From: Myxococcales bacterium
GTDB taxonomy: Bacteria; Myxococcota; UBA727; JABDBI01
DNA length: 64,000 bases
NCBI GenBank assembly: GCA_023248595.1
Contig: JAHFEG010000010.1
Location: forward strand, 1,092 to 65,091
Direction of reading: 5' to 3'
A model generated the notes under the pieces. That model was not told the DNA's origin and searched no databases. It worked only from the letters and a program-made list of their open reading frames with translations. Position numbers and translations under genes: made by a program. Positions 53,851-63,430 of the stretch are shown piece by piece. The number at the start of each line of letters is the position of its first letter. Positions within the stretch are counted from its first letter, which is position 1.

Positions 53851-55350
53851 ATGAAAATATCTGAATATTTAACCTATGATGGTTTAGGGTTAGCAAATCT
53901 AGTTAAAAATAAAGAAGTAACGCCGCTGGAGCTTCTAGAAACAGCAGTTGAGCATATTGAGAACGTGAATGGCGATATTAATGCGGTTGTCGTAAATCAG
54001 TATGATCGTGGTCGTGACCGCATTAAAAATCAAAAATTAGAGGGACCGTTTGTTGGCGTGCCTTTTTTGCTGAAAGATTTAGCTGCATTCGAAGTAGGCG
54101 TCCCTTCGACTTTTGGCAGTCAATTTTGTAAAGACTTAGTGGTTCACGAAGAAAGTGAATTGGTGACACGTTTTAAAAAGGCAGGCTTTGTGACGATAGG
54201 GCGAACCAATACGCCTGAGTTTGGTTTACACCCTACAACAGAGCCCCGCTTTAGGGGAGCCACCAAAAATCCTTGGCAATTAGAACATATTGCTGGGGGA
54301 TCTAGCGGTGGAGCAGCAGCAGCAGTTGCTAGTGGCATGGTTCCCATTGCACATGGTGGCGACGGTGGTGGCTCCATTCGAATTCCTTCTTCATGCTGCG
54401 GTGTGTTTGGCTTAAAGCCAACAGAAGGACGTTCGCCAACTGGTCCATCTGGGGGCAGGCTGTGGCATGGGCTTGCTGTTGAACATGTCATTTCTCGCAC
54501 CGTGCGTGACAGTGCTGCTGCTCTCGATATTGTGAGCGCGCGTCAGGTTGGTGCACCTATTTTAGCGCCTGCGATCAAGATGTCATTTTCGAAGCAGCTT
54601 GAGATTCCCTTAAAAAAATTGCGAATCGCTTATGTGGAAGAACCTTTCTTTAAAGCCAAACTACATGAAGATTGTCGAGAGGCCGCTTTGGATGCAGCGC
54701 GTTTATGCGAAAGTTTAGGGCATGATGTGGAACCTCATAAGCTTAATGTAAAGTCTGATGAAGTTGCCCATGCCTATTTAGTTGTCGTCGCTGGTGAAAC
54801 GGCTGCTTTGCTGGATCGAATTTCCGCACATTTAGGCAGAAGGCCTAAACCAAGTGAGTTAGAGCCAGTGAGTTATGTTTGTGCATTAGGAGGTCAGGCA
54901 TTTAGAGCGTCAGACTATGCGCATGCTGTACGTGTCATGGATGAAGCAAGACGCAATGTCGCTTATTCTTTTGAAGACTATGATTTGGTTTTGACGCCGA
55001 CATTGGCTTTGCCGCCACCAAAATTAGGAGAACTGGGGCCGACATTTCTTGAAAAAGGATTTTTAAAACTTGTAAATAAAATGCCAATTGCTAGTCTCGT
55101 TCGTCAGGCATTCCGCATGATTCCTGAAAATGGTTTCCGGTTGTCACCGTATACTTTTCTTTTTAATCTCACAGGTCAACCTGCGATGTCCGTCCCTTTG
55201 CATTGGAACAAAGAGGGGTTGCCTATTGGGACACATTTTGTAGCTCGCCACGGTGAGGAAGGGCTCTTGTTGCGCTTAGCCAAACAATTGGATGAGGCCA
55301 GATCTTTCTCCACTCAAAGACCGCCATTATTGCAGAAATATATGTCATAA
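53851..55350 (+). CDS. amidase-signature (AS) family amidase
   Basis: 499 aa. 'GGSSGGAAAAVASG...GGDGGGSIRIPSSCCGVFGLKPT'. Confidence 0.8.
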   Translation: MKISEYLTYDGLGLANLVKNKEVTPLELLETAVEHIENVNGDINAVVVNQYDRGRDRIKNQKLEGPFVGVPFLLKDLAAFEVGVPSTFGSQFCKDLVVHEESELVTRFKKAGFVTIGRTNTPEFGLHPTTEPRFRGATKNPWQLEHIAGGSSGGAAAAVASGMVPIAHGGDGGGSIRIPSSCCGVFGLKPTEGRSPTGPSGGRLWHGLAVEHVISRTVRDSAAALDIVSARQVGAPILAPAIKMSFSKQLEIPLKKLRIAYVEEPFFKAKLHEDCREAALDAARLCESLGHDVEPHKLNVKSDEVAHAYLVVVAGETAALLDRISAHLGRRPKPSELEPVSYVCALGGQAFRASDYAHAVRVMDEARRNVAYSFEDYDLVLTPTLALPPPKLGELGPTFLEKGFLKLVNKMPIASLVRQAFRMIPENGFRLSPYTFLFNLTGQPAMSVPLHWNKEGLPIGTHFVARHGEEGLLLRLAKQLDEARSFSTQRPPLLQKYMS

Positions 55351-55401
55351 AAGTTTAGTGCTTTGCTTGTTTGTGAATTTGAGATTCGTTAATATAAGTT
55401 T

Positions 55402-63200: not shown

Positions 63201-63430
63201 GTGTCGCTATTGTTGGCTCGGCGAATGCGAATAATCGTACAGGCAGTTTGGATTCAGAAAGTGTTGCCGTGCTTCATGATGCTCGATTGGCTGAAGAAGT
63301 AGAAAAAGTTATTTTGGCAGACATGGATCCCGGTGTGGCCCACGAAATTCATTTAGATGATATTGAATATGGCCCTGTCATGGAACAGCTCGAAAATGCA
63401 GCCTGGGCAGTTTTAAAAGATTGCATGTGA
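60227..63430 (+). CDS. large protein with novel N-terminal region and C-terminal phospholipase-D/cardiolipin-synthase-like double-HKD domain
   Basis: 1067 aa. HKD-1 'WHEKYLIVDGKKAIIGSMNVAD', HKD-2 'LHTKATAIGSSVAIVGSANANN' (HxK...GSxN). The N-terminal ~550 aa have no motif I recognise. Confidence 0.7.
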   Translation: MLWLSMKELGVVAVTISRKLPANIALAKPFAQNQHDSPVASSDNGTIDNHDHIEVAHTKAEKAESVWNKMIDLTSIDLNALKEGTLRISVPFKAGHYAFPGLYEDADVKVKKHTHALLSIAISKNEKNEAVMNGVNLEFNPPLKIKNPASAFEHKNYLVDKIKDMLADVIVRGLAISKEGKVNIDGAISKGVFGEEDLGPRMSTNHFPVVDMKLKALLDSNLQESLSSSGHKLSGTWQFFDILKQIGAMTEHAQYELKLKTDPIAIGAGYKDCRLWTEKSQAEINFRGRAKITNSGEIEIAGDQNESHISTGDMTVHVGGEGVISNLDQHSPSILAHVGMRAEVKKVQGEAAQAGMKIPFTLGGELDVISGHAFVSVDADRNFKLKDASSLSLQMHARLPSDFSAKRESHAVKIGSSDLQINAGINFEFDQDLQINSGEALLRAKMDHLEGEMAGYRAILEGEVGAGIRANHVRKKAKEFYPSFFGEAEYSLTPAAQPSSIVPGFKAGQGKLDYQFKSDNTLSLESRHSGLTQMVSSLTELVWSPESICDPKTPAAGAIGSFAWRKKIEEITKAPIRSGNQAQLLVDGVMSYPKKLELINNAQKSICLQALAFKDDETGMEMAKALVNAKNRGVEVHVIVDSLGNIESLQEFFKGNKVYQLFEKNQVDFKLYNGALEQGFKEVIEVIASNEKLQEKMAASMADISQAMGALHFIAQAAIGKNDVGLSPENREKLEIGLSRMWGGQQGIAPEEAIAQLSALTADNTIYLFEMAQIVKQMATYNNRWHEKYLIVDGKKAIIGSMNVADVHLLGGTGKMVGSPKERPAWSDIDLLLAGPAVHDAYQHFSDNWEIVSGVPLPKLQPQEALVELNGQAGVDIQVVHGQPRIHGDHHMVNLLVESVKALKPGEKFYTAIAYFIPTGSFDSYAQALIDAAQRGVDVRVVTNSEKSTDLPQVVKAAKSVSYRKLLKGGVRLFECSGDRTLHTKATAIGSSVAIVGSANANNRTGSLDSESVAVLHDARLAEEVEKVILADMDPGVAHEIHLDDIEYGPVMEQLENAAWAVLKDCM

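Follow-up and report, generated by a model that had tools for sequence, protein, structure and literature searches.

The DNA analysed here is a 64,000-nucleotide stretch (64 kb, in the following the window) from the assembly of a Myxococcales bacterium (contig JAHFEG010000010.1, positions 1,092 to 65,091). Near its end, three genes for a transport system are followed by the gene of a very large phospholipase D (PLD) family protein. The three encode a periplasmic adaptor of the HlyD family, a peptidase-containing ATP-binding cassette transporter (PCAT) and a second ABC half-transporter (ABC2). Judging from profile searches, they form a reduced NHLM-type (NHLP/Nif11) export cassette of families TIGR03794, TIGR03796 and TIGR03797. 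The explanation considered best, which is given about an even chance, is that the cassette exports peptides with a Gly-Gly (GG) leader whose genes lie elsewhere, and that the PLD acts on lipids or membranes and is the cassette's neighbour by inheritance, probably with shared transcription. The locus is a known exporter type in a new variant, combined with an uncharacterised, structurally unusual PLD family. If its cargo is no more than GG peptides encoded at a distance, the cassette is an ordinary, slimmed-down representative of a widespread export family for bacteriocins and other peptides made by ribosomes and modified after translation (RiPPs). The less routine part is the PLD, a very rare family with a disordered tail, a beta domain of ~450 residues and a eukaryote-like PLD core.

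For comparison, a reference set of 80 cassette loci was obtained from a PCAT profile scan of one genome per species (GTDB representatives), and the window proteins were compared by BLAST with the open reading frames (ORFs) of these loci. Single loci are designated by L numbers below. The order adaptor-PCAT-ABC2 on one strand, as found here, was seen in nearly all of the 80 reference loci. The PCAT aligns with positions 2-710 of the 710-position TIGR03796 profile and scores 850.8 bits, 2.5 short of the cutoff of 853.3. It comprises a C39 peptidase domain (~56277-56651), a transmembrane domain (TMD) and a nucleotide-binding domain (NBD) with canonical Walker A/B, signature and H-loop motifs. The C39 residues Gln10, Cys16, His89 and Asp105 are all present and are invariant in the alignments of relatives, even in the very divergent loci L093 and L094. 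The best PCAT identity to any reference genome was 44%. Mean identity to 79 reference cassettes was 56% for C39, 53% for the NBD and 29% for the TMD. Moreover, the C39 domain of the window is equally near to cassettes that have NHLP/Nif11 precursors next to them (56.3%) and to those that do not (55.8%). As C39 is the best-conserved domain of the PCAT and is alike in both groups, cargo with an orthodox GG leader is to be expected.

The adaptor exceeds the cutoff of TIGR03794 ("NHLP bacteriocin system secretion protein") with 177.5 versus 156.2 bits. The match falls into two separate stretches because the coiled-coil hairpin is missing. In the alignment with homologues of 415-480 aa, the entire hairpin, ~190 alignment columns, is gone; the N-terminal transmembrane helix and the lipoyl and beta-barrel domains are retained. 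All relatives from the lineage have an adaptor of 287-288 aa. Two length classes were found in the reference loci, ~410-480 aa in most diderm phyla versus 268-320 aa. The short adaptors occur in loci of Actinomycetota, Chloroflexota, Bacillota and Spirochaetales and lack the same hairpin. The hairpin-less form thus appears as a recurrent variant and not as a unique one, though it is unusual for a diderm.

The precursor search consisted of eight NHLP/Nif11 queries and an iterated precursor hidden Markov model (HMM) on six-frame fragments, and small intergenic ORFs were listed. No GG-leader precursor was found at E <= 10 in the 64-kb window. The iterated HMM detected a recognisable NHLP/Nif11/GG-type precursor within 10 kb in 26 of the 80 reference cassettes, leaving 54 without one. 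Paralogous precursor families are reported to reach 29 copies per genome, of which only some adjoin the transporter (PMC2887384, Haft et al. 2010). By these counts, a missing local precursor would be the majority state of the cassette family and not an anomaly. An earlier note, made from the sequence alone, had described five tightly spaced co-directional genes, a transport trio with the architecture of a GG-peptide exporter, an intact C39 domain, an adaptor without coiled-coil hairpin and no small GG-leader precursor nearby. These descriptions hold. The genes lie on the plus strand at the positions listed in Table 1, the profile search assigns all three transport proteins to the families named above, and the C39 domain is catalytically intact on alignment (PF03412, E 1.9e-36; Cys, His and Asp invariant). 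The absence of the hairpin and of a precursor from the window was likewise confirmed. From these odd features the note had gone on to an unconventional cargo, a step which the comparison does not support: hairpin-less adaptors recur, most reference cassettes stand without a precursor, and C39 is conserved.

The host belongs to a diderm, Myxococcota-like, uncultured lineage. This affiliation was inferred from its threonyl-tRNA synthetase (ThrRS), whose best named relatives (60-72% identity) are metagenome-assembled genomes of Myxococcota and "Deltaproteobacteria"; the GTDB-representative scan contains no member of the lineage. In the proposed mechanism, the PCAT and the peptidase-less ABC2 would pair, probably as a heterodimeric inner-membrane exporter. 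The C39 domain would bind the amphipathic helix of the GG leader and cut after the GG, and the core peptide would be pumped out by ATP-driven alternating access. Since the adaptor lacks the hairpin that docks to TolC and the host is diderm, release of the product into the periplasm is the most likely outcome; it might also be passed to a further outer-membrane route. The cargo would most likely be one or several small peptides with a GG leader whose genes lie at other sites in the genome, the usual situation in the family. The PLD would share an inherited gene block, probably an operon, with the cassette without being its cleaved cargo, and the amidase gene upstream would be an unrelated neighbour. 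Homodimers of the PCAT1/ComA/LahT type have the same C39-TMD-NBD architecture, and recognition and cleavage of a GG leader are expected here as there. Unlike them, the PCAT of the window has an adaptor and a peptidase-less ABC partner, probably as a heterodimer with one altered ATP site.

ABC2 is the most modified subunit. TIGR03797 is by far its best-matching family. With 579 aa instead of the usual 850-1000 aa, and without the cytoplasmic N-terminal extension of its relatives, it is the shortest of ~70 proteins compared. Within the lineage it shortens from 894 aa (L007) over ~700 aa (L005) to 579 aa in the window, L003 and L004. In these last three (L003:8165-9904, L004:3236-4975) the H-loop His is replaced by Gln (VVAQRLSTI), a residue kept as His in 63 of the 66 other ABC2 proteins. 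They are the three ABC2 proteins which combine the H-loop Gln with the loss of the N-terminal extension. The substitution suggests an asymmetric heterodimer in which one ATP site is altered. As for the extension itself, which spans 300-400 residues in reference loci (e.g., L014:12150-13400 and L041:5263-6500), no Pfam family matched it at E <= 0.01. The transporter family is widespread, and this domain of it is uncharacterised.

The PLD protein most likely starts at the GTG at 60266, where a GGGAG Shine-Dalgarno sequence and the N-termini of homologues agree, and would have 1054 instead of 1067 aa. Two HxK(x)4D motifs occur within its single chain, together with a PLD fold (PLDc_2 and PLDc domains), which places it in the superfamily. 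The motif residues are His786/Lys788/Asp793 and His983/Lys985 (ATG numbering; near 62582 and 63173). Only six full-length homologues were found in a word-indexed search of 5.8 billion proteins. The N-terminal 575 residues are represented by ~45 clusters among 1.84 billion representatives, most of them ~1000 aa long. An alignment of 29 family members extends over their full length and shows the histidine of each HKD motif to be invariant, and the AlphaFold2 (AF2) model built from it reached a pLDDT of 83 and a pTM of 0.74. The domain limits in this model are given in Table 1. The strands of the N-domain are long, amphipathic and poor in aromatic residues (Tyr+Trp 2.4%), unlike those of outer-membrane proteins. 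According to the model, the domain is barrel-wall-like and may be either a barrel in a membrane or a soluble sheet that binds lipids.

The double-HKD domain is nearest to lipid-acting PLDs, namely vaccinia F13, bacterial and human PLDs and PssA. With 111.4 bits versus a cutoff of 290 for cardiolipin synthase (TIGR04265) and 108.4 versus 281 for ClsB (NF008427), the protein does not qualify as a curated cardiolipin synthase by its profile scores. Both scores are far under the cutoffs. Unlike the eukaryote-like bacterial PLDs (P. aeruginosa PLD, PDB 7v53), vaccinia F13 and ClsB-type cardiolipin synthases, it belongs to a family of ~45 clusters with a disordered tail and a unique all-beta N-domain of ~450 residues. 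The PLD is a lineage-specific enzyme that probably acts on membranes or lipids. Elsewhere in the window, a Ca2+-dependent phosphatidylinositol-specific phospholipase C (PI-PLC; PF16670, E 1.7e-106; 27540-28661) and a glycerophosphodiester phosphodiesterase (30084-30953) are encoded. Together with the PF04185 gene of L007 described below, they make the lineage rich in lipid-headgroup hydrolases.

The contexts of PLD homologues were collected by exact-protein look-ups and a metagenome scan, which gave 13 informative loci. In 8 of these, the cassette lies just upstream of the PLD gene, down to a PLD identity of 29-33%. It is directly upstream in the window, L003, L004, L005/L170, L092 (partial), L093 and L094. 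In L007, an opposite-strand gene of the PF04185 phosphoesterase/phospholipase C family (14814-16448, minus strand) separates ABC2 from the PLD. The cassettes of L093 and L094 are very divergent; TIGR03794, TIGR03796 and TIGR03797 are their best matches, with scores far under the cutoffs, and the C39 triad is retained. An intact PLD gene without cassette was found in the other five loci (L001/L002, L006, L087, L090 and L096). Nearly all loci lie in one inherited block, PTPS(-)-rpsA-rimO-...-PLD-(nfeD-band7 / serS). With the exception of L003, the family loci with visible flanks sit in the rpsA-rimO slot or keep a neighbour from it, L087 and L090 being without such markers. The adjacency can therefore result from vertical inheritance. 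L007, L093 and L094 were considered as independent recurrences of the link and were rejected, as all have the same synteny. Furthermore, only one of the 80 reference cassette loci, again L007, has a PLD homologue.

Some of these loci have features of their own. L007 (JABDBI010000003.1) is labelled "Methanobacteriota archaeon" and is probably a mis-binned or mislabelled contig. Its gene order is that of the window: hutH, a HhH-GPD/NUDIX (MutY-like) glycosylase gene, rpsA, rimO, the cassette, PLD, nfeD and band7. In L093, a Cys-rich protein of 570 aa (4441-6153) is encoded between rimO and the divergent adaptor and stops 3 nt before the latter. It has thrombospondin type-3 repeats, and its hydrophobic N-terminal stretch was read as a signal peptide. 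The slot accepts varied genes of secreted proteins. Eukaryote-like proteins also occur around the loci, with ankyrin repeats, caleosin/EF-hand, lysyl oxidase, Sel1-repeat and PARG-like proteins among them (window 40521-42548, minus strand; L003:4316-4945; L001:15129-18650; L006:6126-7115; L092:5537-6331). Such neighbours hint at a host-associated or predatory lifestyle.

Several observations weigh against the explanation considered best. No GG-leader precursor was found in the ~330 kb searched in total (window, and ~270 kb of relatives' loci, L001-L007, L087-L100 and L167-L171). ABC2 reaches only 634.1 bits, below the TIGR03797 cutoff of 709.4, and aligns with profile positions 114-686 only; the H-loop Gln and the N-terminal deletion taken together mark a pump that has been remodelled in this clade. 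The PLD follows the lineage cassette in all eight visible cases (window, L003, L004, L005, L007, L092, L093 and L094). In L003, the adaptor, PCAT, ABC2 and PLD genes stand together between unrelated flanks (cox genes and a caleosin gene upstream, alr downstream) with the amidase absent; the four genes moved together once. Finally, cassette and PLD diverge at similar fast rates. Identities between the window and L007 are 41% for the adaptor, 44% for the PCAT, 42% for ABC2 and 33% for the PLD, compared with 74% for RimO. Set beside the described NHLM/NHLP-Nif11 cassettes (PMC2887384), the system shares the three families, their order and the intact C39 Gln/Cys/His/Asp, and precursors need not adjoin the transporter in those either. 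It differs from them in the hairpin-less adaptor (a variant of other phyla too), the shortened ABC2 with its H-loop Gln, a PCAT with at most 44% identity to references, the missing precursor in ~330 kb and the PLD downstream.

The linkage data are also what a functional partnership would leave behind. In that case the PLD would not be cargo, and the four genes would form one operon-level module. The PLD could, for example, remodel membrane lipids or protect the producer of a membrane-active exported peptide from its own product; alternatively, its substrate could be the exported product or the membrane surrounding the pump. A partnership would best account for the asymmetry between the genes: the PLD accompanies the cassette in every visible case (8 of 8), and the PLD is without cassette in 5 of 13 loci, a pattern known for orphan immunity or accessory genes. 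The four-gene block kept in L003 despite other flanks and the tight, co-directional spacing agree with it, as do the similarity to lipid-acting PLDs (F13, bacterial and human PLDs, PssA), the long amphipathic strands of the N-domain and the other headgroup hydrolases nearby in the lineage. Against it, the synteny of the whole region is conserved anyway, and the opposite-strand gene between ABC2 and PLD in L007 means that co-transcription is not obligatory. Moreover, the literature search gave no earlier example of a PLD paired with a PCAT, nor of a PLD-family protein serving as immunity or accessory factor at PCAT loci. On balance, a partnership is regarded as rather unlikely, and the functional link between cassette and PLD is unproven. 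If demonstrated, the coupling would extend the known roles of PCATs, with the PLD as cargo, immunity factor or lipid-remodelling partner. An uncharacterised family of phospholipases would also gain a role, in bacteria which are rich in eukaryote-like proteins and are probably predators or host-associated.

The PLD was also examined as the cargo itself, a possibility raised in the earlier note. The protein of 1054 aa would then be recognised via its disordered tail or another non-GG signal, threaded out by PCAT/ABC2, and act as a secreted or envelope-inserted phospholipase effector. The AF2 model does show a disordered N-terminal tail of ~60 residues before the fold, and the adjacency to the cassette is kept down to 29-33% PLD identity. 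In the tail, however, no GG, GA or GS site is conserved, and no leader family matched it at E <= 10. In the window clade, the motif IDLTSIDLNALKEG fits the leader consensus in register at -12, -8, -7, -4 and -1. It was rejected as a GG leader since position -2 is never Gly and the proteins of L092, L093 and L094, loci with a cassette, have no Gly at position -1. In the AF2 model it moreover lies inside the first beta strand (68-79).

The exporter itself fits such cargo poorly. The triad and surface of C39 are conserved as in orthodox GG-processing pumps, and in exporters of large proteins that stay uncleaved the C39-like domain is degenerate (PMC8277102). The cavity of PCAT1, which exports by alternating access, holds roughly one cargo of 66 residues (PMC6959990), and the PLD is ~15 times larger than cargo fitting it. 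One-step secretion needs a hairpin that docks to TolC, and the adaptor has none. The aromatic-poor N-domain is unlike outer-membrane proteins, and the PLD stays intact in the five cassette-less loci. The arrangement resembles type I secretion by HlyB/HlyD/TolC insofar as an ABC exporter and an adaptor stand beside a protein of >1000 residues without Sec signal. Unlike in HlyB, C39 is catalytic here (Cys16 invariant) and not a degenerate C39-like domain, and unlike HlyD the adaptor is hairpin-less. Pfam revealed no RTX or C-terminal secretion signal features in the PLD. Export of the PLD as cargo is therefore considered unlikely. The same doubt applies to HlyD-PCAT-ABC2-PLD as a dedicated module, in which a remodelled GG-peptide exporter would deliver the leaderless PLD into the envelope. 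The barrel-wall-like N-domain might then insert the PLD into the outer membrane, or the PLD might be secreted. If true, this would be a new export route for giant proteins through a catalytically active PCAT.

The first gene of the row encodes an amidase-signature amidase. It matches PF01425 with 306 bits versus a cutoff of 27 (E 5.6e-91) and shows the GGSSGG motif of the Gly/Ser-rich signature. No NCBIfam equivalog cutoff was reached. The protein is cytoplasmic, and its N-terminus has neither leader nor signal peptide. The earlier note had suggested that the cargo might be a product on which the amidase acts. The enzyme could modify a peptide or another product before export, or be exported itself, and its gene is indeed co-directional and only 52 nt upstream of the adaptor. 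The order amidase-cassette also recurs in two sub-branches (window/L004 and L005/L167/L170). The presence of the amidase is nonetheless uncoupled from the cassette. It is missing beside the cassette in L003, L007, L093 and L094, and it is kept next to the PLD, with 83% identity, in L001/L002, where the cassette is lost. No homologue was found in the 80 reference cassette loci. A part in the export system is very improbable, and the gene is best seen, from its distribution, as a dispensable syntenic neighbour. The amidase-PCAT-PLD neighbourhood, whose conservation the earlier note had proposed to compare, is hence conserved in one half: the PLD is always downstream of the lineage cassette, and the amidase is missing beside several.

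The genes and PLD domains are listed in Table 1. The intergenic gaps between the five ORFs (53851-63430) are, in order, 52, -4 (an overlap), 18 and 58 nt. Scans for promoters and terminators gave background level only in the window and did not indicate the operon limits. PADLOC matched only generic ABC-ATPase and DrmC-like PLD domains, and an anti-phage defence system was rejected. Two further window ORFs of 728 aa were considered as second PCAT loci and rejected, as they are PheT and RNase E.

Table 1 Genes of the locus and predicted domains of the PLD protein
Feature	Position in window	Strand	Basis
Amidase-signature amidase, 499 aa	53851-55350	+	PF01425, E 5.6e-91
Periplasmic adaptor (HlyD family, NHLM type), 287 aa	55402-56265	+	TIGR03794, 177.5 bits
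PCAT subunit, 716 aa	56262-58412	+	PF03412, E 1.9e-36; TIGR03796, 850.8 bits
Second ABC half-transporter (ABC2), 579 aa	58430-60169	+	TIGR03797, 634.1 bits
PLD-family protein, 1054 aa from GTG	60266-63430 (longest ORF from 60227, 1067 aa)	+	Two HKD motifs
PLD, disordered tail (residues 1-62)	60266-60451	+	AF2 model
PLD, all-beta domain (residues 68-513)	60467-61804	+	AF2 model; strands up to 22 residues
PLD, double-HKD domain (residues 549-1048)	61910-63409	+	AF2 model; helical insertion

The window is core chromosome, with thrS-infC-rplT-pheST, recG, sdhA, mdh, guaB, mevalonate-pathway genes, hutH, the RNase E gene, rpsA and rimO. Small L35- and IhfA-like ORFs were read by eye in the gaps of thrS-infC-rplT-pheST. 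The GC content of ~42% is low for Myxococcota-affiliated genomes. The sole RNA family match in the window is a single tRNA-Val (GAC) at 14102-14176, directly upstream of thrS. The region 11403-13582 codes for an HMG-CoA reductase of class II (degradative type) and for a mevalonate kinase, and a Bacillus-type SdhA and a malate dehydrogenase resembling lactate dehydrogenase (LDH-like) are found as well. Furthermore, a protein of 611 aa with several PKD domains (2940-4775, minus strand), which belongs to no NCBIfam family, is possibly located at the surface or secreted.

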